32,000 nt of DNA, from contig CP002278.1 of the NCBI GenBank assembly GCA_000166095.1, positions 600,001-632,000 of the forward strand, written 5' to 3'. The notes under the pieces are model-generated. The model saw only the letters and a list, made by a program, of their open reading frames with translations. It made no database searches and was not told the origin of the DNA. Positions 1,195 to 24,207 of the stretch are shown piece after piece (the stretch's first letter is position 1; each line of letters starts with the position of its first letter). The stretch is from Methanothermus fervidus DSM 2088. Its GTDB lineage: Archaea; Methanobacteriota; Methanobacteria; DSM-2088; Methanothermaceae. The position numbers and the translations under genes are program-made.

Positions 1195-1242
1195 TTAAAT
1201 TTGTTATTTTTGTTATTTACAGCTTTTTATTCTTGATTAAAC

Positions 1243-1250: not shown

Positions 1251-1253
1251 GAA

Positions 1254-1266
1254 TAATCACCAAAAA
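1254..1266 (+). promoter_or_regulatory. Copy 1 of exact 13-mer TAATCACCAAAAA (candidate operator)
   Basis: It is identical to 1801-1813 and sits between the TATA-like element and the RHH gene start. Confidence 0.35.
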
Positions 1267-1275
1267 ATATTTTAT

Positions 1276-1803: not shown

Positions 1804-1813
1804 TCACCAAAAA
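1801..1813 (+). promoter_or_regulatory. Copy 2 of exact 13-mer TAATCACCAAAAA (candidate operator)
   Basis: It starts on the RHH gene stop codon TAA, 32 nt upstream of the asnB-like ATG. Confidence 0.35.
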
Positions 1814-1832
1814 TTAACTATGATGGTCACAT

Positions 1833-3248: not shown

Positions 3249-3264
3249 TCTTTGAGGTGTATTC

Positions 3265-4918: not shown

Positions 4919-6859
4919 ATTAGTTACTAATTGCCAAACTACCGTAGAATTGTTCCTATATATTGGTTTAAAGTATTTCGGCGGCTGCTTTAAAATAACT
5001 AATTTTACAAACATAGAATTCTCAAAGTTTTTATCAATTATCAATATTTTATCTGGTGAAATGAAAATTATAGAAAAATTACTGTCTTTATTTATTATTA
5101 CCTTTTTTATGTTTCTATCCACAATGATAAAAGAGTGAGGAGCTTTTTTATTCCACAATGCTCTTTTATGATTTAAATCTAAAACAACATGATTTTTGTA
5201 AGCATTTTCTTTTTTTAGATAAATATATAATATTTCCTTGCTTTTACCAGCTTTAAAATTCCAATTACTATAATAGAAATACCAATAACCTACTTCTACA
5301 TCTCTATCACTTGTAAAGATAAGTATATTTGGTTGTTCAGAACATTTATTTTTTAAAAAACTTACAGCATCCTTTTTACTCATATAATTTTCTAAAATTT
5401 TTGTTGTATTGTTTTTATCCATTTTTAGTATTTCGTCCAGAATTTCTACATGTCTAGCACCAGTCTTGTTCTGCAATGAATAAATCAGAGAATCACCACT
5501 TAAAGATAAGAGTTGTAAAATATTGGAAGAATAATATTCGTTGTCTGTTGCATATGCTTTGCATATCCAATACATACGTGGTGTATTTTGTGATCCACCA
5601 TCAACTAATACTGGTCTTTGTGCAAAAGTTTCTAAAAAATAACCATAGGACCAATCTGATATTATTACAGAGTTTTGAGGCGTGTTGTTTTTAATCCATT
5701 CTGCTGCAGCAACTTGATCTTTATTTATGATGGCCTTTTCTTTATTTAAGGATGCTCCACATTGTAAAATAAGAAGAAATAAAACAAACAACAAAATTAC
5801 ATGTTTTCCAGTTTTTTTCTTTTTAATAAATAATTTTCCGATATAATTAATAATAATGGCTACAATAAGTGATAATGATATTGCAGGCCAAATAATAAAT
5901 CTAATTGCCTGAACATATAATAAAATTCCCGTAATTACCCAAAGAATCAATGTTAAAAATAATAAGCTGTCTATTTTTATTTTTCTTTTGTAAAATAAAA
6001 ATGCAAATAATATTATTAAGTAGATTGATGCGAAAGTGATACAAATGAATTTTAGCCCATAGGGCTTCTGCAATTCTACCACTGATTCATAAATATTTGG
6101 ATAATAAGATTTTGGCATGAAAAATCCAAATGGAGGAATCAAAGAATTGACACCATGAATCAAGATAAGTAGGATTGTAGTGATAACCACAAACAATATA
6201 ACAAATTTTCTTTTTTCTTTAACAAAATTTAAAAAACATGAAATTGTAAACAAATAATAGATGTATGTCCAACCTTCCCAAGTCAGTGAAAACAAAACTA
6301 CTGAAAAAGAAGCTGGAATTACATACATAAATTTTTTAGAGTTTTTAGCTTTTAATAAGAAATATAAAGTAAGGAGTGGAAAAATAGCATAAAACATGTC
6401 AGTGTCAAAAATTCCAGCACTTGTTCTAACCGTGTATATGGGATTTGTTACCAATAATAATCCTGCTAAGATTCCAGTTACTTTATCATCGTCCTGAAAT
6501 AAATAAAAGGATATTATACCTGCTAGAGGTGCAATAAAGGCTGGAAAATAAAAACATAGCTGAAGTAGTTGTAATGATGGAAAAATAAAATTGAGGATTC
6601 TATATGATACAGCTGTTACCCAAGGAAGTAATGGAGGATAATCAACAATTCTACCAGTAGGATAGTAAGAATAAATATCCCACGAATCTCCATTTTTTAA
6701 TATATTTCCCATATGTCCATTTTTTAATATGTTATCAGTCAAACGATAGTTATAGTATGAGTCAGGTTCACACATGATTCTATAGTTTGTGTCAAATGGA
6801 TATAAACGTAAAAAACACCCAAGCAAAAAAATTATTAAAATGATTACTTTAAATCTCAT
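4898..6859 (-). CDS. aglB: Archaeal oligosaccharyltransferase AglB (STT3 family), multi-pass membrane protein
   Basis: STT3-type N-terminal motif CEPDSYYNYR followed by YYPTGR, DxD motif GIFDTDMFY, SVSE/TIXE-like YESVVELQ, and WWDYG-position motif SDWSYGY followed by LVDGGSQN. About 13 TM segments precede a soluble C-terminal domain. Confidence 0.8.
   Translation of the reverse strand: MRFKVIILIIFLLGCFLRLYPFDTNYRIMCEPDSYYNYRLTDNILKNGHMGNILKNGDSWDIYSYYPTGRIVDYPPLLPWVTAVSYRILNFIFPSLQLLQLCFYFPAFIAPLAGIISFYLFQDDDKVTGILAGLLLVTNPIYTVRTSAGIFDTDMFYAIFPLLTLYFLLKAKNSKKFMYVIPASFSVVLFSLTWEGWTYIYYLFTISCFLNFVKEKRKFVILFVVITTILLILIHGVNSLIPPFGFFMPKSYYPNIYESVVELQKPYGLKFICITFASIYLIILFAFLFYKRKIKIDSLLFLTLILWVITGILLYVQAIRFIIWPAISLSLIVAIIINYIGKLFIKKKKTGKHVILLFVLFLLILQCGASLNKEKAIINKDQVAAAEWIKNNTPQNSVIISDWSYGYFLETFAQRPVLVDGGSQNTPRMYWICKAYATDNEYYSSNILQLLSLSGDSLIYSLQNKTGARHVEILDEILKMDKNNTTKILENYMSKKDAVSFLKNKCSEQPNILIFTSDRDVEVGYWYFYYSNWNFKAGKSKEILYIYLKKENAYKNHVVLDLNHKRALWNKKAPHSFIIVDRNIKKVIINKDSNFSIIFISPDKILIIDKNFENSMFVKLVILKQPPKYFKPIYRNNSTVVWQLVTNSSYFCS
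6690..6731 (-). repeat. In-frame 15-nt direct repeat 27 nt apart inside aglB (encodes NILKNG twice)
   Basis: tccattttttaatat occurs at 6690-6704 and again at 6717-6731. The protein reads NILKNGHMGNILKNG. Confidence 0.9.
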
Positions 6860-6932
6860 AATTTTTAGTTTTCATCATAAAATATTTAAATTTTTATTGG
6901 ATTTAAAAAGTTAAAAATTGGAGAGATGTAAA

Positions 6933-8543
6933 ATGAAATTTAGATGTGCAGACGCAATCATAAAAATTCTTGAAAAAGAAAATATTAAATATGTTTTTGG
7001 CCATCCAGGAGAACATGTTTTACCCCTCCTAGATGCAATTAGAAAATCTAAAATTAAACATGTATTGTTTCGACACGAACAAGGAGCAATTCATGCAGCC
7101 GATGGATATGCCCGTGCTAATAGAAAATTTGCTGTATGTCTTTCAACTGGAGGTCCTGGGGCTCTTAATTTTGTAATGGGTGTTGCTACAGCATATAAGG
7201 ATTCTGTTCCTTTACTCATACTTACGGGAGATATTCCAACAAATGATGTTGGTAAAAATGTTTTTCAGGAAGTAGATATTTGTGGCATATTAAAACCTAT
7301 AACTTTGGAAAGCTTTGATCCTTTAACACCAGAAGATTTGATTCTATCACTTAAAAAATCTTTAAAAATGTTAAAATATGGGCCAACTGGTCCTATACAC
7401 ATAAATTTACATAAAGATATTCTTGAGGAAAGAGTTTCGAGTAGTTTAGTTGATAAAAAAGTTAAAATAAAAATCAGGGAGGACAAAAGTAGGTTAAGTG
7501 ACGCCATAGATATTTTAAAATCTGCAAAAAGATTGCTGATATTAGCAGGTGGAGGTGTTTTATGGGCAGGTGCCTCCAAAATTTTAAAAAAAATAGTAAA
7601 AACTAAAAAAATTCCGCTAGTTACTACATATCCAGCTCGTGGAGTCATTAATGAGTATGAAGAATTTTGTTTGGGAATGATTGGCTTAAGAGGTACAAAA
7701 GCTGCAAATTTTGCTGGAAAAACATGTGATGTTTTATTGGCTTTAGGAGCTAAACTTACAGAACGTACATTAGAAGGAATTGGTAATCCAGAAATAATAC
7801 AAGTAAATCTTGATAAAAGATTTTTAAAAGGAGATGTTAATTTACAGATGGATGTAAAAGAATTTTTAGAGATTATTGAGAAAATAGATATATCAGTTGA
7901 TGGAAAGTGGTTAAAAAAATTAAAAAATCTTAAAAAAGAACACATGGAAATTATTAAAAATTCTAAAATATCAAAAACTCAACAAATTATTAAAAAAATA
8001 TTAGAATTTGATGAAAAGGCAATAATTGTTAATGATGCTGGAAGTCATACAACCTGGGTAACCTTATGTAAAAAAGTTGTAAAACCAAGGTCTCTTATTT
8101 TTTCAGGATCTTTTGGTCCTATGGGATATGGATTACCAGCAGCTATTGGCGTGAAATTTGCAAAACCAAATGAAAACGTAATAGTTATAGTGGGAGATGG
8201 TGGATTTCAAATGACGTTGCAAGAACTGGCTACAATCAAACAGTATAATTTACCTATACTTATCTGTGTTTTAAATAATCAATCCTTAAACATTATAAGA
8301 CAATGGCAAGAAATGATGTATAATGCTAGTTATTCTGTAGAGTTGAAAAATCCTGATTTTGTGAAACTTGCCAAATCATATGGAATAAAAGCTATGAAGG
8401 TTAAAAACTTGAAGGAAATAAATAAAATTTTAAGAAAGGCACTGGAATTTAATTCACCATTTCTTATTGAGATCAGAGTGCCTAAAGAAAATATTCCTTT
8501 GCCAAAGACTATTAAAGAAAAATTTTCTATAGGATGGGAGTAG
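6933..8543 (+). CDS. Thiamine-diphosphate enzyme of the acetolactate synthase large-subunit family
   Basis: N-terminal ADAIIKILEKENIKYVFGHPGEHVLPLLDA, then RHEQGAIHAADGYAR, and ThDP motif GDGGFQMTLQELATI...LNN. No ilvN-like small subunit is adjacent. ATG 6933 with GGAGAG 7 nt upstream is preferred over TTG 6918. Confidence 0.8.
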   Translation: MKFRCADAIIKILEKENIKYVFGHPGEHVLPLLDAIRKSKIKHVLFRHEQGAIHAADGYARANRKFAVCLSTGGPGALNFVMGVATAYKDSVPLLILTGDIPTNDVGKNVFQEVDICGILKPITLESFDPLTPEDLILSLKKSLKMLKYGPTGPIHINLHKDILEERVSSSLVDKKVKIKIREDKSRLSDAIDILKSAKRLLILAGGGVLWAGASKILKKIVKTKKIPLVTTYPARGVINEYEEFCLGMIGLRGTKAANFAGKTCDVLLALGAKLTERTLEGIGNPEIIQVNLDKRFLKGDVNLQMDVKEFLEIIEKIDISVDGKWLKKLKNLKKEHMEIIKNSKISKTQQIIKKILEFDEKAIIVNDAGSHTTWVTLCKKVVKPRSLIFSGSFGPMGYGLPAAIGVKFAKPNENVIVIVGDGGFQMTLQELATIKQYNLPILICVLNNQSLNIIRQWQEMMYNASYSVELKNPDFVKLAKSYGIKAMKVKNLKEINKILRKALEFNSPFLIEIRVPKENIPLPKTIKEKFSIGWE

Positions 8544-8710
8544 TAAATTTATTTAAAATTTTCTTACAATGCCAATGCTTATATGTTAGAATTTTTAAAT
8601 TTTTTTACAAACTATCATGATTTATCATGTAATAATATAAAGTTGTGTAAACGTGTTAATGCATTAGAACCATACTTAAATAAATATACCTTCTCAACAA
8701 GAGGAAAAAC

Positions 8711-8718
8711 TTATATAT
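8711..8718 (+). promoter_or_regulatory. Candidate TATA box (TTATATAT) with purine-rich BRE-like tract upstream, for the hydrogenase operon
   Basis: It lies ~35-42 nt upstream of ATG 8753, and the GAGGT RBS at 8741-8745 would fall in a very short leader. A second TATA-like TAAATATA sits at 8681-8688. Confidence 0.35.
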
Positions 8719-8752
8719 TGAGCTCACAAATGAGAAAATAGAGGTTAAAAAT

Positions 8753-9073
8753 ATGAGCACTGTCGATTACATATTTGGAGGGCTAACTGTCGTTGTAATC
8801 ATCACATGTAGCTACTGGTTAAGCGGAATGTTGTCAAGTAAAAGTAAACATCAGAAAATTTTCAAAAGACCATTTACAAGTGGAGCTGTCAATCTACCAA
8901 AACATTATAAGTACATAACAAAGATAGTTGTATTTTTATCATTCTTCTTCACGTTGGAATCACTTCTAATTGCATCAATATTCACAGGTTTATCATTTTC
9001 CACTTTGATATATTTCACACTTACTCTTATTGCTGTCGTGCTTTTCACAATGTTATTCTCTAGAGGTGAGTAA
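8753..9073 (+). CDS. NuoA-like small membrane subunit of the complex
   Basis: 106 aa with 3 TM. KRPFTSG aligns with the NuoA PFESG motif, and FFFTLESLL aligns with VIFDVEALYL (Glu kept). It occupies the first position, as in nuo operons. The match is weak and by eye only. Confidence 0.5.
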   Translation: MSTVDYIFGGLTVVVIITCSYWLSGMLSSKSKHQKIFKRPFTSGAVNLPKHYKYITKIVVFLSFFFTLESLLIASIFTGLSFSTLIYFTLTLIAVVLFTMLFSRGE

Positions 9074-9074
9074 A

Positions 9075-9548
9075 ATGCAAAATAAAATCACAAATTTTTT
9101 CACAAAAAATATCTTGAGGAAAAGCATGTGGTTATTTCATTTTAATAGTGGAGGGTGTAATGGATGTGATATAGAATTTGTTGCAGCTTTGACACCGTTG
9201 TATGATGTAGAAAGGATGGGAATTCAGCTTGTATCTTCACCACGTCATGCTGACATACTTGTTGTAACTGGCCCTGTAACACTTCAGTCTTTAAGCTCAT
9301 TAAAACTCATATATGAGCAAATGCCTTCACCAAAATATGTAATTGCTGTGGGTAATTGTGCATGTGATGGATGTGTATTCAAAGATTCTTATAATGTTCT
9401 TGAAGGCGTAGATAAAGTATTACCAGTAGATGTTTACATTCCTGGATGTCCACCAAGTCCTCGAGCAATATTTAGAGTGTTACAGAGTATATATCATGGT
9501 AAACTAGTAGTAACAGGTGAGAAGGTTGGGGAAGAGGAAGTTGGATAA
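9075..9548 (+). CDS. [NiFe]-hydrogenase small subunit, group 4 / NuoB-like (proximal [4Fe-4S])
   Basis: Motifs NSGGCNGCDIEF, GNCACDGC and IPGCPPSP. ATG 9075 follows a GGTGAG RBS and starts 1 nt after the upstream stop. The track start 9030 overlaps the previous gene. Confidence 0.9.
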   Translation: MQNKITNFFTKNILRKSMWLFHFNSGGCNGCDIEFVAALTPLYDVERMGIQLVSSPRHADILVVTGPVTLQSLSSLKLIYEQMPSPKYVIAVGNCACDGCVFKDSYNVLEGVDKVLPVDVYIPGCPPSPRAIFRVLQSIYHGKLVVTGEKVGEEEVG

Positions 9549-11151
9549 TACTGTAGAAGTTCACCCATCAGAAATAAAAAATATGGCAGAAAAAACATTG
9601 AGGAAATATCCTCATTTAATAACTATAACACCCATACATTTAGATGAGGAGCTAAAAATTATTTATACATTTGATGATTTAAAAGGAAATTTAAAACATG
9701 TAATTACATATATACCTGTCAATTCTCCAAAAATAGATAGTATTACAGATGTAACTCCTGCAGCATTAGTATATGAGATGGAAACAAAGGATTTATTTGG
9801 AATAAAGTTCCAAAACTCTTATACATCTTCCAAACTAATTTTACCAGATTGTTATTCTGATAATTTACCTGCACCTTTACTCAAAACTACAAAATTAAAA
9901 TCTTTAAGAGAAAAATTATCAAATCACTGTATTCAAAATGGAATAATTGATGTATCTACTGATGCAATAAAATATGAAGGTGAATCTATAGTAACAGTCC
10001 CATTTGGACCATATCATCCTGCATTGAAGGAACCAGAGCATTTTGCAATTGTTTTAAAAGGAGAAAAAGTTGTTGATGTATTTCCAAGGATTGGATATGC
10101 ACATAGAGGAGTAGAAAAACTTTGTGAGACACGTCCCTTCCACGATGTTTTGTATTTGGTTGAAAGAGTATGTGGAATATGTAGTTTTGCTCATTCATGG
10201 GCATATACTCTCGCTGTAGAAGAACTTACTGGCATTAAAGCACCAAGAAGAGCAGAATATCTAAGGACAATAGTCGCTGAATTAGAAAGAATTCACAGCC
10301 ATGTAATGTGGATTGGATTGCTAGGATATTGGGCAGGATTCGAAACAATGTTCATGTGGATATGGGGAATAAGAGAAAAAATAATGCATCTTTTAGAATT
10401 GATAACAGGGAATAGAGTCAATGCCTCTTTTATAACTATAGGAGGAACAGTGACAGATGTTTCAGAAGAAAAATTAAATGAAGTAAAAAAAGTTGTAAAG
10501 ACATTTGAAGATTTTGCTGAGGAACTAATGGATGCTTTATTTTCATATGACCCTCTTGTTGAAAGAATGAAAAAAATTGGAGTTTATGATTCTAAAAAAG
10601 CTATTAAATATGGAGCAACAGGTCCAGTAATCAGGGCCACTGGTGTCCCTAATGACATACGAAAAATCGAACCATATGGTGCCTATGAAGAACTACCATG
10701 GGATGTAGTTACGAAGGATGGTGGAGATGTATTTAATGTAACAACTCTTAGAATGTACGAAGTTCTTGAATCCAGTAGAATAATTATAGAGGCTATAGAA
10801 AACATTCCTTCTGGAAATCCTACTCCAAAAAGATTTTTTTCTAGAAGAATAAAAGATGGAGAAGCAATAGGCCGTGTTGAAGCACCTAGGGGCGAATTAT
10901 TTGATTATGTAATGGCAAAGAATTCTAAAAATCCATATAGGGTAAGAATAAGAACACCAACTTTTGCAAACTTGATTTTCACATCCAATCTGCTTAAAGG
11001 ATCAACATTATCAGATGTACCTTTAATATTAACAACTATGGACCCTTGTTTCGCTTGTTTAGACAGATCTCTTGAACTTAAAAAATTATTTGAAAAAAGT
11101 GAAGTTGCCACCTATATAAAGCAGGCATGGAGGAACATGCATGGATTATAG
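9517..11151 (+). CDS. Fused NuoC-NuoD-like subunit = group 4 [NiFe]-hydrogenase large subunit
   Basis: The N-terminal ~110 aa are NuoC/HycE-N-like. Downstream motifs are GPYHPALKEPEHF, IGYAHRGVEKLCE and L1 motif RVCGICSFAH (Cys219/Cys222, TGT at 10171 and 10180). Further on are EAPRGEL and C-terminal DPCFACLDR (Cys511/Cys514, TGT at 11047 and 11056) plus a 27-aa tail. The start is ambiguous (GTG 9517, TTG 9526 after AGGTGA, or TTG 9541). Confidence 0.9.
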   Translation: MRRLGKRKLDNTVEVHPSEIKNMAEKTLRKYPHLITITPIHLDEELKIIYTFDDLKGNLKHVITYIPVNSPKIDSITDVTPAALVYEMETKDLFGIKFQNSYTSSKLILPDCYSDNLPAPLLKTTKLKSLREKLSNHCIQNGIIDVSTDAIKYEGESIVTVPFGPYHPALKEPEHFAIVLKGEKVVDVFPRIGYAHRGVEKLCETRPFHDVLYLVERVCGICSFAHSWAYTLAVEELTGIKAPRRAEYLRTIVAELERIHSHVMWIGLLGYWAGFETMFMWIWGIREKIMHLLELITGNRVNASFITIGGTVTDVSEEKLNEVKKVVKTFEDFAEELMDALFSYDPLVERMKKIGVYDSKKAIKYGATGPVIRATGVPNDIRKIEPYGAYEELPWDVVTKDGGDVFNVTTLRMYEVLESSRIIIEAIENIPSGNPTPKRFFSRRIKDGEAIGRVEAPRGELFDYVMAKNSKNPYRVRIRTPTFANLIFTSNLLKGSTLSDVPLILTTMDPCFACLDRSLELKKLFEKSEVATYIKQAWRNMHGL

Positions 11152-12109
11152 TGTTTTTACATACACAATTTCCATTGTTATATTTTCATTCATTATGGCA
11201 CCTATTATAGAATGGATAGAAAGAAAATTGGTGGCAAAAATCCAAAGAAGAGTAGGTCCATATTTCACAGGGCCTAAAGGATTCCTACAACCCTTCTATG
11301 ATTTCTTTAAACTTCTTGGAAAGGAAGAAAATTTACCTGAAAATATGGATAAACTTGTTGCACATCTTGCAGTGTTACTAGCAGTTATATTACCAATATT
11401 TGGGATACTTTTTATCCCTATATTTTCTCCAGTCTCTCCTTATAATTTCCAAGGTGATTTTCTATTTATTTTGGTTATACTTTCATTTTTGGCATTCTCT
11501 ATAGTTATGGCGGGTTTGGCCTCATTAACACCATTTACTGTTGTAGGGACTGGGAGACTAATAGTCCAATATTCAATGTATGAAGTGATATTAATAATTT
11601 CTCTATTTTTAGCTTTTGCACAGGTGGGTGACTACTCAATCTCAGCAATTTTAAAATATCAAATTGCAAATTATCCATTGATATTAACACAACCCCTAAC
11701 ATTTTTTGTAATGATTTTTTCATTGTTGGCAGTATTAGAAGAACCACCATTTGATCTACCACATGCTAAGCAAGAAATTGTAGCTGGATGGAAGACTGAA
11801 TATTCAGGCAGATTACTTGCTTTCATACTATTTTCAAGAAATTTAAAATTCCTCTATATTGCCTTAATAATTGTTACAGTGTTTTTAGCAGGAGGATATG
11901 GGCCAGGAATCAATAAATATGGATTTTTGTGGATCATTTATTTACTTATTAAATTATTGTTTGTAGTATTCCTAGTTACTTTTGTTAAAGCTATAGCAGT
12001 AAGAGTTAGAAGTCTGTATTTACCTAAAAATTTGTGGCTCAAGTTCATTCCCATTTTGATATTACAGCTCATAATAATAGGTGGACTTAAAACTCTGGGG
12101 GCAATATAA
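11141..12109 (+). CDS. NuoH/HycD/EchB-like membrane subunit
   Basis: ERKLVAKIQRRVGPYFTGPKGFLQPFYDFFKLLGKEE is the family signature. It has about 8 TM. A GGAGGA RBS precedes it and it overlaps the upstream gene by 11 nt. Confidence 0.9.
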   Translation: MDYSVFTYTISIVIFSFIMAPIIEWIERKLVAKIQRRVGPYFTGPKGFLQPFYDFFKLLGKEENLPENMDKLVAHLAVLLAVILPIFGILFIPIFSPVSPYNFQGDFLFILVILSFLAFSIVMAGLASLTPFTVVGTGRLIVQYSMYEVILIISLFLAFAQVGDYSISAILKYQIANYPLILTQPLTFFVMIFSLLAVLEEPPFDLPHAKQEIVAGWKTEYSGRLLAFILFSRNLKFLYIALIIVTVFLAGGYGPGINKYGFLWIIYLLIKLLFVVFLVTFVKAIAVRVRSLYLPKNLWLKFIPILILQLIIIGGLKTLGAI

Positions 12110-12480
12110 TGAATAATATTTTGAGAATTGTAAAAGAAGCTGCCAAAAACTTGGGATCAAAGGTTTTTACACTTATACCTAAAGATATGGACGAAATAAC
12201 AAAGAGATATTGGCTAGGTAGGCCAACTTTAATACCTGAGAAATGTAATGGCTGTTCTATTTGTGCCATTATGTGCCCTGTGAAAGCAATAAACATGGTT
12301 GTTGTAGGCGAAAGAGTAGTAGGTAAAAGAAAAGTACCTCTAAAAAATCCCAAATTTGATTACAACAGATGTATATACTGTGGCTTATGTTCGGAAGTAT
12401 GTAAGTTTGGAGCTATAAAAATCAAAAAAGAGTCATCATATAGGATAATCATTGGTGATAGGTCATGTTATGTGAAATAA
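12109..12480 (+). CDS. NuoI-like 2x[4Fe-4S] ferredoxin subunit
   Basis: Cluster motifs CNGCSICAIMCP and CIYCGLCSEVC. It shows TAATG start/stop coupling with the upstream gene. Confidence 0.85.
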   Translation: MNNILRIVKEAAKNLGSKVFTLIPKDMDEITKRYWLGRPTLIPEKCNGCSICAIMCPVKAINMVVVGERVVGKRKVPLKNPKFDYNRCIYCGLCSEVCKFGAIKIKKESSYRIIIGDRSCYVK

Positions 12481-12908
12481 TGTCAATTATTGGTTCAATT
12501 TTAATAATTTATGCATTGCTTGAACAAAAATTACCTAGGTTAATAGTTTCATTATTTGTTGGTTGTGTATTAATAGGAATTAGCATTGCATTATATACGT
12601 CAATACCAATTGGATTAATAGTCATTTTTTTATTTGGTGGTACTTTAGTTGCTTTATTATATTTAGCCGGATTAACTGTACCTACAATTAAGATAAAAAA
12701 CTTGAAAGTTGCTGTAACTGCTATAGTTCTCACAATTGTTGTATTTACAAGTGTATCACTATTAATTTTAGCTAAGCACAAAATATTGGTCCTAACTACT
12801 CCTAGAGTTGAATGGCCTAAAATCACCGTTAATAATTTACTTGCATTAATGATAACATTGACAGCATCTTTTTATGCAATAGTAAGTATAATGGGTGGTA
12901 AATCATGA
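12480..12908 (+). CDS. NuoJ-like membrane subunit (by position, size and weak motif)
   Basis: About 143 aa with 4-5 TM. FLFGGTLVALLYLAG resembles the NuoJ VYVGAIMVLFLF region. It sits between the I-like and K-like genes, as in nuo operons. Its ATG overlaps the upstream TAA. Confidence 0.5.
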   Translation: MSIIGSILIIYALLEQKLPRLIVSLFVGCVLIGISIALYTSIPIGLIVIFLFGGTLVALLYLAGLTVPTIKIKNLKVAVTAIVLTIVVFTSVSLLILAKHKILVLTTPRVEWPKITVNNLLALMITLTASFYAIVSIMGGKS

Positions 12909-13195
12909 AACTCTTAGCATTTATACCTCCATTATTATTACTATATGGGGGAATGGCAACAATTCTATTTGGAAAAAATATTTTCAGATTGATTTTAGGG
13001 ATATCAACTATAGAAATTTCAGTTATTTTGTTTGCATCTATTTTAATTAGTATGTTTGGGTTTTTACAGTGGATAATAATAATATCCGCGTCAGTGCTTG
13101 TTGCAAGCGAAGCAGTGCTTGTTGCATTTATTGTTTCATTATCTAAGAGAATCAAAATTAGAGAAATAGATGAACTGAAATCTCTGAGGTGGTAA
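12905..13195 (+). CDS. NuoK-like membrane subunit
   Basis: 96 aa with 3 TM. Mid-membrane Glu residues occur in TM2 (STIEISV) and TM3 (VLVASEAVLVAF), as in NuoK. ATGA coupling. Confidence 0.7.
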   Translation: MKLLAFIPPLLLLYGGMATILFGKNIFRLILGISTIEISVILFASILISMFGFLQWIIIISASVLVASEAVLVAFIVSLSKRIKIREIDELKSLRW

Positions 13196-13200
13196 CTTTG

Positions 13201-14886
13201 ATGAAAATTATATTATTATTGCTTATTATCATAAATTTACTAGCTTCTGGAGCTGTACTCTTATTAAATAGATTTAACAGAAGATATGTTGAGATCACTG
13301 CTATAATTTCAACCTCATTGTCATTACTGCTTTCAACAACTCTTCTATTTATTTTCACATGTCCAACAAAAATTCAAATTTTACCATATGTTAGTATTTT
13401 TGTTGATAAAACCTCAGCATTGTTAACATTAATTGTAAATTTAATAGGGACATTTGTGATTCTATATAGCATAGATTATATGAGAAAAGAAGTTGACTAT
13501 GCCAGATTTTATTCATTGATGCTTCTCTTCATAGCTTCGATGACACATTTAATTTTAGCAGGAAATATACTCTACTTGTTGTTACATTGGGAATTAGTTG
13601 GGATTTGTAGTGCTTTACTCATAAGTTATTGGTGGGAAAGACCAGCTGCAAGAAGAGCAGGGATAAAAGCATTGATCATGACAAGAATTAGTGATATTGG
13701 ATTAATGATTCTTGCAGTCATGGCAATTTTAGTAAATGCAACAGATATTTCTCAGTTTCAAAATATAGTTTTGTTAAATCCTACTTTATTATCTATATCC
13801 TCAATTATGATATTAATAGCTGCATTTGGTAAGTCTGCACAATTTCCTTTCCATACATGGCTACCAGACGCTATGGAAGGTCCTACACCAGTTAGTGCAC
13901 TACTACATTCAGCTACAATGGTTAAAGCCGGTATATACTTAATCATGAGATTTCTACCATTAATATCTGCATTTCACTTCGCAAAGTTTTTATTAATAAT
14001 TATATCTTTAATAACATTATATTTAGCATGCTTTGCAGGTTTAGTAAGTCATGGAATAAAAAGAGTTTTGGCTTATAGTACAATTAGTTCATTATCTTTA
14101 ATGTTTTTAGCTTTGGCTTTAGGGGAATATATACTAGCAGCCATGTATTTCTTAACACACAGTATTTTCAAAACGTTATTATTTATGGTGGCTGGAATTA
14201 TAGAGCATGATGTGGGAAAAGGAGATATGCGGGTCGCAAGAGGTTTATGGAGAAAAAACTTTAAATTGGAAGGAATAGTTTTTTTAGTAGGAGCTTTATG
14301 TGCAGCAGGGTTACCACCATTAGCCTCTGGTTTCATAAAGGAATGTATATTTGAAGGTTTGAATCTTGTTTTTGTAAGCTACATATATTATTTAATAGTC
14401 ATTTCACTCTCAATATTGATGTCACTCTTCATGATGAGAGCTTTCGTCATAGTTTTCTTTGCATCGGGGAAAGAAACTAAAGTTAAACACATTTATGAAC
14501 CATTTATGTATTTGCCAACAATACTTCTTTTTGTGTTTGTCTTCATCGTCTTTTTACCTTTAATTAAAATACCAAAATGGCTTGGAATTGAAGTAGAGTG
14601 GTTACATATAGATATAGGGATGCTAGTAGGAACTATAGTTGGTATATTACTTTCACTAACTTATTTAACTTCTAAAAAAGAAATTAGTGAAAAAATTAGG
14701 GAATTATTCAAGACGTCATTTTATCTAGATAAAGCATATGAAAATTTAGGTAATTTATTTAGCCAGGTAATAGTTAAATTAGCAGCAAAAATCCATACAG
14801 GTAGAGCTTCACAAGGCTTAATGGCTTTTTATCTGTTTCTGCTTGTATTGTTAATATTTATATTCATTAGAGGTGGTGCACTATGA
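13201..14886 (+). CDS. NuoL-like antiporter-type subunit with C-terminal extension
   Basis: Motifs WELVGICSALLISYWW and AFGKSAQFPFHTWLPDAMEGPTPVSALLHSATMVKAGIYL. The C-terminal FYLDKAYENLGNLFSQVIVKLAAKIH plus a final TM resembles the NuoL lateral-helix region. ATG 13201 follows GAGGTGG (track start GTG 13189). Confidence 0.9.
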   Translation: MKIILLLLIIINLLASGAVLLLNRFNRRYVEITAIISTSLSLLLSTTLLFIFTCPTKIQILPYVSIFVDKTSALLTLIVNLIGTFVILYSIDYMRKEVDYARFYSLMLLFIASMTHLILAGNILYLLLHWELVGICSALLISYWWERPAARRAGIKALIMTRISDIGLMILAVMAILVNATDISQFQNIVLLNPTLLSISSIMILIAAFGKSAQFPFHTWLPDAMEGPTPVSALLHSATMVKAGIYLIMRFLPLISAFHFAKFLLIIISLITLYLACFAGLVSHGIKRVLAYSTISSLSLMFLALALGEYILAAMYFLTHSIFKTLLFMVAGIIEHDVGKGDMRVARGLWRKNFKLEGIVFLVGALCAAGLPPLASGFIKECIFEGLNLVFVSYIYYLIVISLSILMSLFMMRAFVIVFFASGKETKVKHIYEPFMYLPTILLFVFVFIVFLPLIKIPKWLGIEVEWLHIDIGMLVGTIVGILLSLTYLTSKKEISEKIRELFKTSFYLDKAYENLGNLFSQVIVKLAAKIHTGRASQGLMAFYLFLLVLLIFIFIRGGAL

Positions 14887-16196
14887 ATTTAGAAGGAATG
14901 GCAATTATGATAGCTATAATTGCAGTCATTGTTATCATGACAAGTAGAATTATTTGGAAAGAAAGGAAATTACTTCCACTATATATAGCAATTTTTATTT
15001 CAATAGTACAATTAGTATTATCTTTATATGCAAAAGGTGTTGCAGGACTATCTGGATCTACTGCAGCGTTTATTAGTATATTAAGCTTGTTAGTATCAAT
15101 TACTACTGCCGAAAATATTGAAAGAAAAACTATGTTAGCTATTGGACTTATACTTTTTAATGCAGTCTCATTTCTTATCCCATATACCAATGACATTATA
15201 AGGTTGTTTATTTACTGGAAAACTCTCAGTTTTGTAATTTTAGGATCATTGAATATGAGGCATACTGAAGATGAATATGAAGCCAGTATAAAATATATTG
15301 TCATATGTGTAATAGCAGTGCTAGTTGCATTAGTAGGAATATTTATGGCAATACATGATGCACAAAGCACTAAAATTACTGATATTATCCATAAATCTTC
15401 ATTTATTGCAAAAGTGCTTATAGTTGCGGGGTTAGCAGCTGAGGCAGCAATGTTTCCAATGTACTTCTGGTTACCTGATGTACATATGACAATGCTTCCA
15501 CTTTTAGCTGTCTTACTAATGGGTGCTGCAACTCCTTCAACAACATATGTAGTTGGACATATTGCATCTACCAATATATTTACAAAAGAAATTGTAGGTA
15601 TATTGGCAGTTGTTACATCAATTATTGCTGCATTGGCAGCAACATTTCAAAAAAATATTAAGAGATTATTGGCTTACAGTACTTTATCACATTTTGGATA
15701 CATGTTATTTGCATTTACAACTGGTGTGCCATTGGGAGTCCAATATGGAGCTTTACATATTTTAGCCCATGCTACAGTAAAAATACCAGCATTTTTAGTT
15801 GCATATCTAATGATAGAATATGTAGGCATGTACAGTGTTTCAGGCCTCAGGGAATTGGATGTTGATATCATAAGGTTTATAGTAATTACTTCAGCTATAG
15901 GACTCTTAGGCTTACCACCACTTCTAACGTTTTGGAGTGAAGTATTTATTTTCATTGCCTCTTATTCATTGGGAGGCATCTGGAAGCTACTTGCGTTAGC
16001 TTTCTTTATGGCAATATTGTTCTCTACAGGATATGCCTTTAAACTTATATATTCTTTCTCTAAAAGAAATGACAAAAAGGATGTAAAATTAAATAGAAAG
16101 ATCGTTATTGCTTCTCTACCTTTAGCAATTGCTGTAGTCCTTTCAATAATATTTGGTATATTTCAAAGCAACATTATTATCTATTTCTTCCATTAA
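14883..16196 (+). CDS. Second antiporter-type subunit (NuoN/NuoM-like), divergent
   Basis: Motifs AAMFPMYFWLPDVH and KRLLAYSTLSHFGYML. It has about 13 TM. ATGA coupling follows a GAGGTGG RBS. Confidence 0.8.
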   Translation: MNLEGMAIMIAIIAVIVIMTSRIIWKERKLLPLYIAIFISIVQLVLSLYAKGVAGLSGSTAAFISILSLLVSITTAENIERKTMLAIGLILFNAVSFLIPYTNDIIRLFIYWKTLSFVILGSLNMRHTEDEYEASIKYIVICVIAVLVALVGIFMAIHDAQSTKITDIIHKSSFIAKVLIVAGLAAEAAMFPMYFWLPDVHMTMLPLLAVLLMGAATPSTTYVVGHIASTNIFTKEIVGILAVVTSIIAALAATFQKNIKRLLAYSTLSHFGYMLFAFTTGVPLGVQYGALHILAHATVKIPAFLVAYLMIEYVGMYSVSGLRELDVDIIRFIVITSAIGLLGLPPLLTFWSEVFIFIASYSLGGIWKLLALAFFMAILFSTGYAFKLIYSFSKRNDKKDVKLNRKIVIASLPLAIAVVLSIIFGIFQSNIIIYFFH

Positions 16197-16202
16197 TTTT
16201 TT
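16197..16202 (+). terminator. Oligo-T tract immediately after the operon stop codon
   Basis: TTTTTT follows directly after TAA 16194-16196. Archaeal terminators are typically oligo-T. Confidence 0.35.
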
Positions 16203-16291
16203 ATTAAATAAATGTTATAATAACTTTTTTAGCTAATTTATAGAATTATTCTTACTTTACAAAAAAACAGTTAAAAAGAGAGAGGTAGAAC

Positions 16292-17077
16292 ATGAAGCAG
16301 ATACTTATAACAAATGACGATGGTGTAAACTCTTCAGGAATATTGGCAACAAAGGAGGCAGTAAAAGATTTAGGACGTTGTATAATAGTGGCTCCAACAA
16401 CCCAACAAAGTGGAATTGGACATGCTTTATCATTATTTGAACCGATAAGAGTCAATACTACAATACTCAGAGATGGAAGTTGCGCATATGCAGTTTCAGG
16501 TACACCTACAGATGCTGTGATACTTGGAATATATGAAATAGCCAAAGGTAAAGTTGATTTAGTGATATCTGGGATTAATATTGGTGAAAATTTGGGTAAA
16601 TCAGAGCTAACAACGTCTGGTACAATTGGAGCTGCAATGGAAGCTGCTGTACATGGAGTGCCAGCAATGGCTGTTTCATTACAAGTGGAAAAAAGTGATA
16701 TAAAATTTCATGATGGCCATGTAGATGTTGACTTCACATATGCAAAAAAAATAACAAGAAAAATAGCTAAATTAATTTTAAAAAAAGGATTGCCAGATGG
16801 TGTAGATTTTATAAACATCAACATACCAGCAAAACCAAAAGATGAAGAAATTAAAATTACAAAATTAGGAAAAAGAATGTATAAAGTAAATGTTGAGAAA
16901 AGGCATGACCCAAGAGGAAGACCATACTATTGGATAAATGGAAAATCTGTACATAAGGATTTACCAGGAACCGATGTTTATGTTTTAAAAAATGAAAGAA
17001 AGATTACCTTAACACCCCTAAAACTTGATTTTACGGCAGATATTGATGCCACGAAAGAATGGTTGAAAGAGGTATGA
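16292..17077 (+). CDS. surE: 5'/3'-nucleotidase SurE
   Basis: Motifs [24 protein letters not shown] and [11 protein letters not shown]. Confidence 0.9.
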
Positions 17078-17997
17078 TTATGAACTTTGGAAAAGGAAAG
17101 ATATGGTTCAATGGAGAATTTGTGGATTGGAAAGATGCAAAAATTCATGTTCTTTCACATGTTGTACATTATGGATCAAGTGTATTTGAAGGAATAAGAT
17201 GTTACAAAAACAAAAAAGGGTCTGCAATTTTTCGTTTAGAAGATCATGTAAAACGATTATTTGAATCTGCAAAAATATACCGAATGGAAATCCCGTATTC
17301 TGAAGATGAAATTTGTGATGCAATAATAGAAACAGTGAAAATAAATAATCTAGAAGAGTGTTATATAAGGCCAATAGCATTCCGTGGATATGGTGAGTTG
17401 GGTGTAAATCCACAGAATTGTCCAGTAGAAGTAGCTATTGCAGCATGGGAGTGGGGAACTTATTTAGGGGAAGAAGCAATTAAAAATGGTGTAGATGTTT
17501 GTGTATCAAGTTGGAGAAGGATGGCTCCAAATACGCTTCCAAATATTGCCAAAGCTGGAGGAAATTATCTGAATTCACAACTTGTTAAGATGGAAGCAAT
17601 AGCAAATAATTATGACGAAGGAATAATTCTTGATTACCAAGGATTTGTAAGTGAAGGCAGCGGTGAAAATATTTTCATTGTAAAGGATGGGATTCTTTAT
17701 ACACCTCCTGTCCATTCATCAATATTGATAGGTATAACAAGAGACACTGTCATGAAGTTGGCAGAGGATATAGGTATAGAGGTTAGAGAAGAAAATATAC
17801 CTAGAGAAATGTTATATATTGCTGATGAGATATTTCTTACAGGTACTGCAGCAGAAATAACCCCAATACGCTCTGTAGATGGAATAACTATCGGGAATGG
17901 CAAAAGAGGTCCTATAACTAAAAAATTACAGAAAGAATTTTTCAAAGTAATAAATGCAGAGGTTGAGGATAAATATGGTTGGTTAAGGTATATATGA
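17074..17997 (+). CDS. ilvE: Branched-chain amino acid aminotransferase
   Basis: [35 protein letters not shown] is almost collinear with E. coli IlvE. Further motifs are EGSGENIF and TGTAAEITP. The start is ATG 17074 (ATGA overlap with surE) or ATG 17080. Confidence 0.9.
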
Positions 17998-18557
17998 TAG
18001 TTGGTGTAGACCTTGCTGGAAAAGACAAAAATGCGAGTGGAATTGCAATTTTAAACAAAAATAACATATATACAACTGAAAAATATTATGATAATGAAAT
18101 CATTGAAATATGTAAAAAAGCTCGAATAGTAGTTTTTGATGCACCGCTTTCACTTCCAAAAGGCAGATGTTGTCTTGAAATAAATTGTGAATGTAGTAAA
18201 TTTGGACATTTCAGGAAATCAGACATTGAAATTAGAAAGTATGGTAAAGTTCTTCCTCTTACTTTTAGAGGCATGAAAAAACTTGTGTTTAGAGCTATAA
18301 AACTAAAAAACATTATAGAGTCCTTAAATAAAAATACTTGTGTTATAGAGACTCATCCAAATACTGCAAAGAAAATGATAGATGTTTCTATTTTAAAGAG
18401 ATTTAAAACAAATAAAAAAATTAGTAAAATGACTATTCATGAGTTTGATGCAATGATAGCTGCTATAGTCGGGTATTTTTATAAAAAGAAAAAGTATATT
18501 GCTTTAGGAGATAAAAATGAAGGAACGATCATACTTCCAAAACTTACATCTCCATAA
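17994..18557 (+). CDS. DUF429/COG2410-like protein (predicted RNase H-fold nuclease)
   Basis: N-terminal [20 protein letters not shown] and C-terminal [14 protein letters not shown] resemble this archaeal family. Its ATG overlaps the ilvE stop. Recognition is by eye only. Confidence 0.45.
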
Positions 18558-18580
18558 TTATTTTTCAGTTAATAGCAAGT

Positions 18581-18588
18581 TTTATATA
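18581..18588 (+). promoter_or_regulatory. Candidate TATA box TTTATATA upstream of the ferredoxin gene, flanked by AGTTAAT direct repeats
   Basis: AGTTAAT occurs at 18568-18574 and 18591-18597 on either side of the TATA-like element. A strong AGGAGGTGGAG RBS precedes ATG 18663. Confidence 0.35.
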
Positions 18589-18662
18589 GTAGTTAATGAG
18601 TATTAATAATTGGTATTTTTATCTTCCTATGCTTTAAAAAATTTTCAAAAGGAGGTGGAGTC

Positions 18663-18857
18663 ATGAGTAAAATAACAATTGACTATGATAAATGTGATGG
18701 GCCAGATTGTGCAGAGTGTGTAGATGTTTGTCCAATGGAAATTCTAGTTATAGAAGGAGACAAAGTTGTTGCTAAAAATACTGAAGAATGCAATGAATGT
18801 ATGGTTTGTATGGATGTATGTCCAAATGAGGCCATCACAGTAGAACCAGAAGAATAA
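18663..18857 (+). CDS. Small 2x[4Fe-4S] ferredoxin
   Basis: 64 aa with cluster motifs CDGPDCAECVDVCP and CNECMVCMDVCP. Confidence 0.85.
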   Translation: MSKITIDYDKCDGPDCAECVDVCPMEILVIEGDKVVAKNTEECNECMVCMDVCPNEAITVEPEE

Positions 18858-18890
18858 ATAAGGAAAGCCCCTTTAAAGTTTTTTAGATGA

Positions 18891-19997
18891 TTACCTCTCT
18901 AATTCTCCCTTTATAAATTTATCAACCATTTCTGCAGCCTTTTCATCATCTATTTGTTTTGGAGGATGTTTCATAGTATAAGCAGAAATTGATATGAGTG
19001 GTCCTCCTATTTTCCTATCTAATGCCAATTTACAACATCTTATTGCATCAATAGCACTCCCTGCTGAATTTGGAGAATCTTCAACACTTAAACGTAATTC
19101 TAGATCTATAGGAACATCTCCAAATATTTTACCTTCCATCCTTAAAAAACAAATTTTATTGTCTTTTAACCAAGGAACATAATCACTAGGACCAATATGA
19201 ATGTTTTCAGGCTCCAATCTGTTTTTACCAAGTATTGATTGTACTGCCTCTGTTTTTGATTTTTTCTTAGAATCCAATCTTTTATGGTTTAACATGTTTA
19301 GAAAATCTGTATTTCCTCCTATGTTCAACTGATAAGTTCTTTCTAACTTCACACCTCTTTTTTTAAATAAATTTGCAAGTGCTCTATGTGTTATAGTAGC
19401 ACCTATTTGAGACTTTATATCATCGCCAACAACAGGCAGGTTATTTTTTTCAAATTTTGCAGCCCATTTTGGATCACTGGCTATAAACACAGGTATATTA
19501 TTTATAAAACCTACTCCTGCCTCTATTGCACATTGTGCATAATATCTACTAGCCTCTTCAGAACCTACTGGTAAATAATTTAACAATATTTCAGCTCCAG
19601 AATCTTCCAAAACTTCAGTCACATTCACAGGTTTTTCATCTGCCACAACAAAAGTAAATTTTTCATCATAATTGTACATATGTTTTGCAACACCATCCAT
19701 CACAGGCCCCATGCAAACTTCAACACCTAATTTTGGAATATCATCATAAAATATTTTTGTACAATTTGGTGGTGAAAAAATAGCTTCGCTAACATCTTTT
19801 CCTACTTTTCTTTTATCTATATCAAATGCTGCCACAATCTCTATATCTCCTGGTTTATATCCACCTATATCCCAATGCATCAATCCTACACAATCTTCTT
19901 CTCCCTTATTTCTATAATAATAAATGCCTTGGATTAAAGCACTCGCACAATTACCTAAGCCAGCTATGGCAACCTTTATTTTACTCACATGAAACAC
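18891..19997 (-). CDS. myo-Inositol-1-phosphate (inositol-3-phosphate) synthase
   Basis: Motifs KVAIAGLGNCASALIQGI (NAD-binding N-terminus), DDIKSQIGATITHR and NIGGNTDFLNML...SKKKSKTEAV. The track start is GTG 19997; GTG 19988 after AGGTG is equally plausible. Confidence 0.8.
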   Translation of the reverse strand: MFHVSKIKVAIAGLGNCASALIQGIYYYRNKGEEDCVGLMHWDIGGYKPGDIEIVAAFDIDKRKVGKDVSEAIFSPPNCTKIFYDDIPKLGVEVCMGPVMDGVAKHMYNYDEKFTFVVADEKPVNVTEVLEDSGAEILLNYLPVGSEEASRYYAQCAIEAGVGFINNIPVFIASDPKWAAKFEKNNLPVVGDDIKSQIGATITHRALANLFKKRGVKLERTYQLNIGGNTDFLNMLNHKRLDSKKKSKTEAVQSILGKNRLEPENIHIGPSDYVPWLKDNKICFLRMEGKIFGDVPIDLELRLSVEDSPNSAGSAIDAIRCCKLALDRKIGGPLISISAYTMKHPPKQIDDEKAAEMVDKFIKGELER

Positions 19998-20000
19998 CTG

Positions 20001-20798
20001 CTATATGTTTATTGTTAAACCTGTTTGTAGTTTCATTACATTACCTATTTTTGATTTTAAAACATTATATGCATTTTCACCAGTGCAATGCCCTGTGTAG
20101 ATCATCTGTATTGGGTATTCTGAAAGTTTATCAGCAATAAACTTTATTTTTTCTGTACTTAAATTTATCATGTGAAAGCCTCCTATGAGAAGTTTTATAG
20201 TTTTATTCCCAAAATGTCTATAGGCAGTATCTACAATATTTAAGATCCCGTTGTGTGAACATCCAGTTATAATTGATATCCAATTTTTTTCTTCTATGAC
20301 TAAAAATAATTCATGGGAAAAATCGTCAAGTATCAAGTTTTTATTTGATTTTTTATATAAAGGTTCTTTATACTGGGGAAACTTTTTATTTATTTCAGTT
20401 ATTACATGAATATTTCCAAAACTTTTGTTTTTACTGAGGAATTTTATTCTTTTTTCTTTTTCAATGTTTAGACCAATTTCTCGCCAGCTCCCATCATCTT
20501 TTGCATAATATTTATTTACAGCCTCTTTTTTTAAATAAACATTGGCTTTTTGATTTTCCTTTAGAAAATATGGAAGTCCCCCACCATGATCATAATGTCC
20601 ATGGGAAATAAATGCAATATCTACATCCCTAATATCTATACCCAATTTTCTAGCATTTACAAGAAACAAGTCTGTTGCACCCATGTCAAAAAGTATATTT
20701 TTGTTTGAATAAATGTGTAAAGATAAACCATGTTCGGCTTTAAAATTAACATCTATACTACTATCTTCCACCAGACATGTTATTTGCATATTTTTCAC
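20001..20798 (-). CDS. MBL-fold metallo-hydrolase, COG1237 family (family includes the MJ0301-type methanopterin-pathway enzyme)
   Basis: AEHGLSLHI...ILFDMGA...FISHGHYDHGGGLPYF is the COG1237 pattern. The stop is 3 nt from the downstream MIPS start. The specific activity is not inferable. Confidence 0.7.
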   Translation of the reverse strand: MKNMQITCLVEDSSIDVNFKAEHGLSLHIYSNKNILFDMGATDLFLVNARKLGIDIRDVDIAFISHGHYDHGGGLPYFLKENQKANVYLKKEAVNKYYAKDDGSWREIGLNIEKEKRIKFLSKNKSFGNIHVITEINKKFPQYKEPLYKKSNKNLILDDFSHELFLVIEEKNWISIITGCSHNGILNIVDTAYRHFGNKTIKLLIGGFHMINLSTEKIKFIADKLSEYPIQMIYTGHCTGENAYNVLKSKIGNVMKLQTGLTINI

Positions 20799-20818
20799 CT
20801 TTAAGGAGGGGTTAATTT

Positions 20819-24206: not shown

Positions 24207-24207
24207 A

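Follow-up and report, generated by a model that had tools for sequence, protein, structure and literature searches.

A stretch of 32,000 nucleotides from the genome of Methanothermus fervidus DSM 2088 (CP002278.1, positions 600,001 to 632,000; here called the window) carries at positions 8753-16196 an operon of nine plus-strand genes. With a probability of roughly 80%, these encode one group 4 [NiFe]-hydrogenase complex with a complex-I-type membrane arm, reversible, probably working in this organism from H2 to ferredoxin, and horizontally acquired. The operon is a member of a recognised, uncharacterised hydrogenase class and founds no new category, because the same design has been described in other archaea since 2021. 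M. fervidus is a hyperthermophilic hot-spring methanogen whose only known mode of growth is on H2 and CO2. A membrane-bound [NiFe]-hydrogenase is regarded as the ancestor of complex I. An ancestor combining the subunit set of complex I with a Ni-Fe site was predicted by Moparthi and Hagerhall 2011 (PMC3144371). The evidence consists of the identities of the subunits, their metal-ligand motifs, a predicted NuoL-like fold, the phylogenetic nesting of the large subunit and, in relatives, the synteny of maturation genes.

The nine open reading frames (ORFs) follow one another almost without intergenic space in the order A, B, fused CD, H, I, J, K, L and N-like, which is the order of nuo operons. 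ORFs and order are as described in an earlier interpretation of this DNA made without database searches (the sequence-only reading). For family assignment the Pfam and NCBIfam profile libraries were used. Six of the nine products (B, CD, H, I, L and the N-like protein) were recognised directly, and the A-like (106 amino acids) and J-like (142/147 amino acids) ORFs, searched as single sequences, matched no profile in either library.

Catalytic subunits

The [NiFe] large subunit is a fused NuoC-NuoD protein (9517-11151, plus strand) of 544 amino acids from the GTG at 9517, deposited with 536 amino acids (ADP77426.1 / WP_013413704.1). It matches the Pfam families Complex1_30kDa, NiFeSe_Hases (PF00374, in its N-terminal Ni-binding region) and Complex1_49kDa. 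The L1 (RxCGxCxxxH) and L2 (DPCxxCxxR) motifs of group 4 hydrogenases are both present. They read RVCGICSFAH and DPCFACLDR and align column for column with MCGICSFSH and DPCLSCTDR of the solved Pyrococcus furiosus MbhL and, in the same columns, with VCGICGFAH and DPCYSCTDR of Escherichia coli HycE, likewise of solved structure. An alignment of 22 relatives shows no variation at the cysteines C219, C222, C511 and C514, while Thermus thermophilus Nqo4, Aquifex NuoCD, E. coli NuoCD and Thermofilum pendens NuoD have no cysteine at the Ni-Fe ligand columns. Realignment thus bears out the claim that both Ni-Fe ligand pairs are kept. Among solved large subunits the closest is MbhL (289 bits), followed by HycE (277), Nqo4 of complex I (about 211) and MbsL (205).

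The NuoB-like hydrogenase small subunit (9075-9548, plus strand; Oxidored_q6, E = 2.5e-36) has 157 amino acids from its ATG, with an alternative TTG start at 9030. Its GGCNGCDIE motif aligns with GGCNGCEIE of HycG and with HyfI; at this CxxC column E. coli NuoB has a tandem CC (SCC), and T. pendens NuoB is also CC. The subunit further carries GNCACDG and PGCPP. It has one [4Fe-4S] site and, as in group 4 enzymes, CxxC instead of CC, which agrees with the hydrogenase-style motif noted in the sequence-only reading. Beside these stands a NuoI-like 2x[4Fe-4S] subunit of 123 amino acids (12109-12480, plus strand; TIGR01971 NuoI, E = 2e-16), the presumed entry or exit point of ferredoxin, in which the CxxCxxCxxxC motif occurs twice in complete form, at residues 46 and 88. 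A NuoH-like anchor and a NuoI-like 2x[4Fe-4S] subunit are accordingly encoded in one operon, a further feature of group 4.

Behind the L2 motif the large subunit continues for a tail of 27 amino acids, which aligns with the C-terminal extension of HycE. In HycE this extension is the part cut off by the HycI protease during maturation; group 4 enzymes in general need Hyp proteins to mature and, if they carry such a tail, a HycI-type endopeptidase. Tails of 20-34 residues after DPCxxCxDR are found in the clade formed by M. fervidus and Thermoproteota and in its sister clade, whereas in a CD-fused clade of Bathyarchaeia and Asgard archaea the large subunit has no tail and stops exactly at DR. This difference implies different maturation requirements: the tailed clades would depend on an endopeptidase and the tail-less clade would be independent of it.

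Membrane arm

Six membrane subunits are encoded by the operon. The NuoH/ND1-like membrane anchor (11141-12109, plus strand; 322 amino acids) matches PF00146 (NADHdh) with E = 2e-70 over profile positions 5-297 of 298. For the small subunits, family alignments were built from the syntenic ORFs of related loci and searched as profiles against all sequences of the PDB. The NuoA/ND3-like subunit (8753-9073, plus strand) has 106 amino acids and three transmembrane (TM) helices. Its profile, made from 11 syntenic orthologues, matches only ND3/NuoA/Nqo7 chains, best 8b9z_A over the full length (E = 1.2e-5); its loop motif PFTSG resembles PFESG of E. coli NuoA, and Glu70 in TM2 aligns with E. coli NuoA E81. 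The NuoJ/ND6-like subunit (12480-12908, plus strand) has 142 amino acids, or 147 from the ATG at 12465, and about five TM helices in one unsplit protein. Here the best profile matches are NdhG/NuoJ chains (E = 3.5e-6, positions 19-139); MbhD follows with E = 2.9e-4 for the N-terminal half only, and HyfE gives no match. Compared by hhalign with single NuoA or NuoJ sequences of E. coli or T. pendens, the small-subunit profiles give weak probabilities of 8-43%, less informative than the profile searches of the PDB.

The NuoK/ND4L-like subunit (12905-13195, plus strand; 96 amino acids, three TM helices) belongs to the family that includes MrpC and MbhG, and scores 24.2 bits against Oxidored_q2 (cut-off 26.1). 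Its family profile matches E. coli NuoK over the full length (E = 5.6e-12) and MbsG/MbhG in two stretches (about 1e-12 to 1e-13), so that by sequence the protein is not distinguishable as NuoK or MbhG/MrpC, as expected for one family. Two mid-membrane glutamates had been proposed for it. Glu69 aligns exactly with E. coli NuoK E72, but Glu38 lies three residues off the column of NuoK E36 and is found in three of nine close relatives. Among the operon products, Pfam (PF01899, PF04066, PF03334, PF04039) and NCBIfam detect no Mrp E/F/G/B-type subunit. With small subunits of NuoA, NuoJ and NuoK type present, as in complex I, and A- and J-like profiles that score as NuoA and NuoJ, the arm is complex-I-like, as had been supposed.

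The larger of two antiporter-like subunits is of NuoL/ND5 type (13201-14886, plus strand; 561 amino acids; Proton_antipo_N and Proton_antipo_M). It scores 234 bits against Nqo12, 182 against MrpA and 116 against MbhH, and has the full canonical set of channel residues, E131 (TM5), K211 (TM7), K242 (TM8) and K380 (TM12). Its AlphaFold2 model has a predicted local distance difference test (pLDDT) value of 92.8 and a predicted template modelling (pTM) score of 0.92. Beyond the core of 14 helices the model places two TM helices (434-460 and 472-488) and then a helix some 35 residues long (497-531), and it ends in a TM helix (536-560). The segment 489-528 is strongly amphipathic. All top 50 Foldseek matches of the model are NuoL/Nqo12/ND5/NdhF chains aligned end to end, and no Mrp or Mbh chain is among them. 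The proposed tail of a lateral helix and a final TM helix, as known from complex I, is therefore supported at the level of a predicted structure. The predicted helix is shorter than in complex I, which fits the published rule that the more antiporter-like subunits a lateral helix spans, the longer it is (Yu 2021, PMC8165549).

The second antiporter-like subunit (14883-16196, plus strand; 437 amino acids; Proton_antipo_M) belongs to the NuoN/MrpD/MbsH class and has atypical channel charges. Its best solved relatives are MbsH (86 bits), Nqo14 (69) and MbhH (63). At TM5 it carries K113, where all eight relatives examined as well as Nqo14, MbhH and MbsH have Glu. At TM7 it carries E187, which is Glu throughout the family and in MbsH but the canonical Lys in Nqo14 and MbhH. 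The TM8 lysine is absent, and TM12 has E353 (canonically K or E). The Glu/Lys pair of TM5 and TM7 thus appears charge-swapped, in M. fervidus only. Together with L this makes only two antiporter-like (PF00361) genes in the operon, as against the three (L, M and N) of complex I.

Operon boundaries, relatives and origin

Computed with the most plausible start codons, the junctions measure +1 nt for A/B, -32 nt for B/CD (-8 with the GenBank start of CD), -11 nt for CD/H, -1 nt for H/I (TAATG) and for I/J, -4 nt for J/K (ATGA), +5 nt for K/L and -4 nt for L/N (ATGA). The genes are tightly packed, as had been stated, but translational overlaps do not run throughout, since only four of the eight junctions are overlaps of 1 or 4 nt. 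An AT-rich gap of 210 nt separates the A gene from an upstream gene for a thiamine pyrophosphate (TPP)-dependent enzyme. Features read from the sequence on the plus strand are a candidate archaeal TATA box in this gap, TTATATAT (8711-8718), about 35 nt before the first ATG, a ribosome-binding site AGAGGT (8740-8745) and, directly behind the final stop codon, six consecutive T (16197-16202) as a candidate archaeal terminator. Because of the gap with its candidate TATA box and ribosome-binding site in front and the T6 run behind, both ends of the operon resemble those of a separately transcribed unit. All nine ORFs agree in length with their orthologues in related loci.

The nearest relatives of the large subunit are found in Fervidicoccaceae, Desulfurococcaceae, Thermogladius, Thermofilum and Infirmifilum (46-54% identity), and there are no methanogens among them. 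The L subunit has its best matches in these lineages as well, with 38-47% identity to the Thermogladius and Thermofilum orthologues. We calculated a bootstrapped neighbour-joining tree from 358 columns of the catalytic domain of the large subunit for 63 sequences, with MbhL, HycE, HyfG, NuoCD, T. pendens NuoD and an Mbh-like Desulfurococcaceae subunit as references. The M. fervidus protein lies inside a clade of 17 members (bootstrap 100), of which all other named members are Thermoproteota, with the Desulfurococcaceae/Fervidicoccaceae/Thermogladius group as its sister (bootstrap 95). The simplest reading of this position is that the Methanothermus lineage acquired the whole operon horizontally from an archaeon related to Desulfurococcales or Fervidicoccales. 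The guanine plus cytosine (GC) content of the operon equals that of its flanks, so the transfer would be old and the genes maintained. A cluster of the same type (49% identity) lies on contig CAZUSK010000041.1, which is binned as 'Candidatus Saccharibacteria'; it groups with a metagenomic sequence inside the Thermoproteota-named clade and because of this position is probably mis-binned.

The identical nine-gene order is present in Thermogladius sp. 4427co, an ENA metagenome contig, a Fervidicoccaceae metagenome-assembled genome (MAG) and a Desulfurococcaceae MAG. The operon of the Fervidicoccaceae MAG is closely flanked by hycI on its upstream side and by hypA and a hypB-like gene on its downstream side. 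In the Desulfurococcaceae MAG (locus L087) the nine-gene cluster (9239-16611) directly follows a 13-gene Mbh/Mrp-type cluster (1159-9199) on the same strand. T. pendens and Thermogladius calderae have an eight-gene form with no called A gene, I before H and an I subunit of 233 amino acids. In T. pendens (locus L001) the hydrogenase cluster (9586-16975) stands immediately upstream of a nuoABCDHIJ... operon (17146-21614) whose product has no Ni-Fe cysteines, so that the hydrogenase and the complex I version of one ground plan occur in tandem on one chromosome. In a paper on Staphylothermus, T. pendens is listed as being without mbh/mbx-type clusters. The sister clade (bootstrap 95) consists of unfused D subunits of uncultured archaea. 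Its loci read hycI-A-B-C-D-H-I-J-K-L-N, with hycI as the first gene and hypA, hypC and pyruvate:ferredoxin oxidoreductase genes nearby. Loci of Bathyarchaeia and Asgard archaea (L015, L031 and L080) have the full A-B-CD-H-I-J-K-L-M-N with an L of about 650 amino acids, and in many bacteria three antiporter-like genes stand upstream of B-CD-H-I.

These relatives bear on the claim of novelty. In the sequence-only reading the architecture was presented as an intermediate between group 4 hydrogenases and complex I, to be given up as new if the large subunit nested within an already described subgroup of the same architecture. This is largely what the sequences indicate: the large subunit nests, with bootstrap 100, in a clade with the same nine- or eight-gene architecture, and this clade has long been deposited in genomes and is annotated in T. 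calderae 1633 as 'Membrane-bound hydrogenase, subunit NuoCD' (also NuoL). The accompanying premise that the archaeal 11-subunit Nuo/Fpo-like complexes have lost their Ni-Fe cysteines is out of date, since it is contradicted by the published Hfo (PMC7886697) and Asgard (PMC11291895) complexes. In the literature we found nothing specific on the cluster of M. fervidus, or on that of Thermoproteota, as a complex-I-like hydrogenase, and no paper on a lineage with two antiporter-like subunits.

Elsewhere in the window, a stand-alone 2x[4Fe-4S] ferredoxin of 64 amino acids is encoded 2.5 kb downstream (18663-18857, plus strand; Fer4 family matches). It exists as had been pointed out, but the suggested link to the operon is unsupported. 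Three unrelated genes lie between (surE, a class IV aminotransferase and a 192-amino-acid ORF), related loci show no conserved ferredoxin neighbour, and the best NCBIfam match, an HgcB-type ferredoxin model, is far under its cut-off. For want of linkage and conservation we set it aside as a dedicated partner. Further downstream, a gene for a pyridoxal phosphate (PLP)-dependent enzyme (23007-24140, plus strand; SepSecS family, E = 8e-35) adjoins two abutting tRNA-Ser genes with the anticodons CGA and TGA (24120-24294, minus strand); as the host is a methanogen, the enzyme is probably a SepCysS-type Sep-tRNA:Cys-tRNA synthase. At 26005-29442 (minus strand) the gene for elongation factor 2, an ORF of 1145 amino acids, is split by an intein with a LAGLIDADG homing-endonuclease domain.

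Function and known systems

From the characterised relatives Mbh, Ech, formate hydrogenlyase (FHL) and complex I we infer the ferredoxin partner, ion coupling, stoichiometry and direction of the enzyme. Ferredoxin would dock at the NuoI-like subunit and exchange electrons with it. These would run through three [4Fe-4S] clusters, two in I and one in the NuoB-like subunit, to the Ni-Fe site of CD, which would interconvert 2H+ + 2e- and H2. The redox step would be coupled through the 'E-channel' subunits resembling NuoH, A, J and K to the antiporter-like L and N, held together by the lateral helix and terminal TM helix of L, and ions (H+ or Na+) would cross the membrane. Sequence alone does not fix the catalytic direction. 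In the fermentative Thermoproteota the most likely direction would be evolution of H2 from reduced ferredoxin, building an ion gradient. In M. fervidus, an obligate H2/CO2 methanogen, the gradient would more likely be used to reduce ferredoxin with H2, as by Eha and Ehb.

The opposite direction in M. fervidus, an H2-evolving, ferredoxin-oxidising ion pump like the Mbh of Pyrococcus that disposes of excess reduced ferredoxin and conserves energy, is unlikely. It would suit the donor lineages, which are fermenters, the pyruvate:ferredoxin oxidoreductase genes adjoining the sister-clade operons, and the reversibility established for Ech and Mbh, but an obligate H2/CO2 host would by it waste the low-potential electrons that it needs for CO2 reduction. 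A decaying or silent remnant of the transfer, without function in an organism that has other energy-converting hydrogenases, is most improbable. M. fervidus is indeed the only named organism outside Thermoproteota in its clade, and the Glu-to-Lys change at TM5 of the distal subunit is specific to its lineage. Yet the nine ORFs are intact, of full length compared with their orthologues and tightly coupled, every catalytic and cluster-binding residue is conserved, independent sequencing runs contain identical or nearly identical copies, and the GC content argues for an old transfer with maintained genes.

The enzyme might also only resemble a hydrogenase and be, like the 11-subunit Nuo/Fpo-like, Mbx/Mbs or Ehr complexes, an oxidoreductase between ferredoxin and an unknown acceptor. 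In GenBank the genes bear the names of NADH-ubiquinone oxidoreductase subunits, the best NCBIfam matches of the operon are the NuoD, FpoD, NuoB, NuoH and NuoL models, and the distal antiporter-like subunit is closest to MbsH. However, every NuoD-type NCBIfam score is below its cut-off, and the large subunit scores higher with MbhL (289) and HycE (277) than with Nqo4 (211) and MbsL (205). With the four Ni-Fe cysteines invariant within complete L1 and L2 motifs, a protease-type C-terminal tail, and hycI and hyp genes adjoining the orthologous loci, this explanation retains almost no probability.

Several points weigh against the favoured reading. No hyp or hycI gene was found within the 32-kb window. 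The canonical TM7 and TM8 lysines are missing from the distal subunit and a Lys stands at TM5, so that standard pumping may not apply to it. The C-terminal helix of L is predicted with a lower pLDDT (62-88). The tree is a neighbour-joining tree with no Ech, Coo, Eha or Ehb references. Finally, no 4g-type enzyme has been characterised according to PMC7886697, and the operon is known from its sequence only.

With the hydrogenase assignment retained, the remaining novelty is modest: the transfer into a methanogen, a sub-lineage with two antiporter-like subunits and the unusual charges of the distal subunit. The two-antiporter, ten-subunit-equivalent form is seen in M. fervidus, in Thermoproteota and in the large sister clade of uncultured archaea, and as a sub-lineage separate from Hfo it seems not to have been singled out before. 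A bolder proposal, which we put forward tentatively and consider rather doubtful, is that the genomes with this form (A, B, C, D, H, I, J, K, L, N) carry a monophyletic lineage of complex-I-like hydrogenases, distinct from Hfo and so far undescribed. It would then represent a stage in the evolution of complex I before the third antiporter-like subunit, M, was added. The distal subunit, with its TM7 Glu and no TM8 Lys, would use a non-canonical, possibly Na+-binding pathway, and M. fervidus would possess, beside Eha and Ehb, a third 'low gear' of high stoichiometry from H2 to ferredoxin. The first purifiable member of the complex-I-like hydrogenase class would also be at hand, as thermophiles already in culture (M. 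fervidus, Thermogladius and T. pendens) possess it.

Hfo and the Asgard complexes are known only from sequences, those of uncultured organisms, and no such enzyme has been purified. The operon and its Thermogladius and Thermofilum orthologues place a close relative of the predicted ancestor in cultured hyperthermophiles, from which a thermostable complex could be isolated for activity measurements and electron cryo-microscopy. For methanogen physiology it would mean a third, foreign energy-converting hydrogenase in an organism assumed to depend on Eha and Ehb.

Among the known systems, Eha and Ehb of methanogens (groups 4h and 4i) have operons of 17-20 genes that include polyferredoxins and many small integral membrane proteins, compared with nine genes and no polyferredoxin here. 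Ech (group 4e) is a six-subunit enzyme with two membrane subunits, against six membrane subunits in our operon, and an Ech type was rejected because of this excess. The E. coli enzymes Hyf (FHL-2, group 4a) and Hyc (FHL-1, 7Z0S) likewise have C and D fused in a large subunit that ends in a cleavable C-terminal tail, and Hyf in addition has several antiporter-like subunits. Their gene order is different, HycE and HyfG branch far away in the neighbour-joining tree, and the window holds no HycB/HyfA or formate dehydrogenase partner genes. A Hyf type was discarded on gene order, tree position and the missing HyfE match.

Mbh (group 4d, 6CFW) and Mbs (6U8Y) of P. furiosus supply the closest large subunit, MbhL, and the closest distal subunit, MbsH, which has the same TM7 Glu. 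The operon, however, has no counterparts of the MrpE/F/G/B types (MbhA-C and F) and contains a NuoA homologue; its NuoJ is one protein with five TM helices, where Mbh has the split MbhD/MbhE, and the lateral helix is part of L instead of a separate MbhI. An Mbh type was excluded, as there is no Mrp module. With complex I and the 11-subunit Nuo/Fpo-like complexes the operon shares gene order, membrane subunits of NuoA/H/J/K/L type and an L closest in sequence and fold to Nqo12/NuoL/ND5. It differs by keeping a Ni-Fe site in place of a quinone pocket, by CxxC in place of tandem CC and by having only two antiporter-like subunits. A Nuo-like type with quinone or another acceptor was rejected on account of the intact Ni-Fe ligands.

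The nearest described system is Hfo, an 11-subunit, fpo-collinear [NiFe] hydrogenase of Bathyarchaeia with intact L1 and L2 motifs, classified by HydDB as 4g and assigned to sub-lineage 4g-6 (Loh 2021, PMC7886697). Related Bathyarchaeia subunits are classed 4g as well (PMC5037454, PMC7886697), a class described as loosely clustered and polyphyletic (PMC5037454, PMC13582414). Hfo was presented as a bridge from group 4 hydrogenases to complex I, was proposed to reduce ferredoxin with H2, driven by the membrane potential, and has similar clusters in Pyrodictium delaneyi and Ca. Methanomethylicus (PMC7886697). Like it, the M. fervidus operon is nuo/fpo-collinear without EFG and FpoF, keeps the L1 and L2 cysteines and has membrane subunits of NuoA/H/J/K/L/N type without an Mrp Na+ module; for both, coupling to ferredoxin and translocation of ions have been proposed. 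Unlike it, M. fervidus has two antiporter-like subunits (no M) instead of three, and an L of 561 instead of about 650 amino acids. C and D are fused, so that the set of eleven subunits (A, B, C, D, H-N) is not matched, although its order is kept. The large subunit has a C-terminal tail, which the CD-fused Bathyarchaeia/Asgard clade does not have. In the neighbour-joining tree the M. fervidus clade is separate from the A-to-N loci L015, L031, L080 and L018, which serve as proxies for Hfo. The 'complex I-like NiFe-hydrogenase' of Asgard archaea was modelled with a full HL helix (Valentin-Alvarado 2024, PMC11291895). These complexes, with at most eight Nuo-like genes and an HL of full length, are known from models only, and the sampled Asgard large subunits (L031, L076) fall in other clades. 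Orthologous operons of the cultured Thermoproteota Thermogladius sp. 4427co, T. calderae 1633 and Thermofilum pendens Hrk5 belong to the same clade as that of M. fervidus; their hosts are fermenters, whereas M. fervidus is a methanogen.

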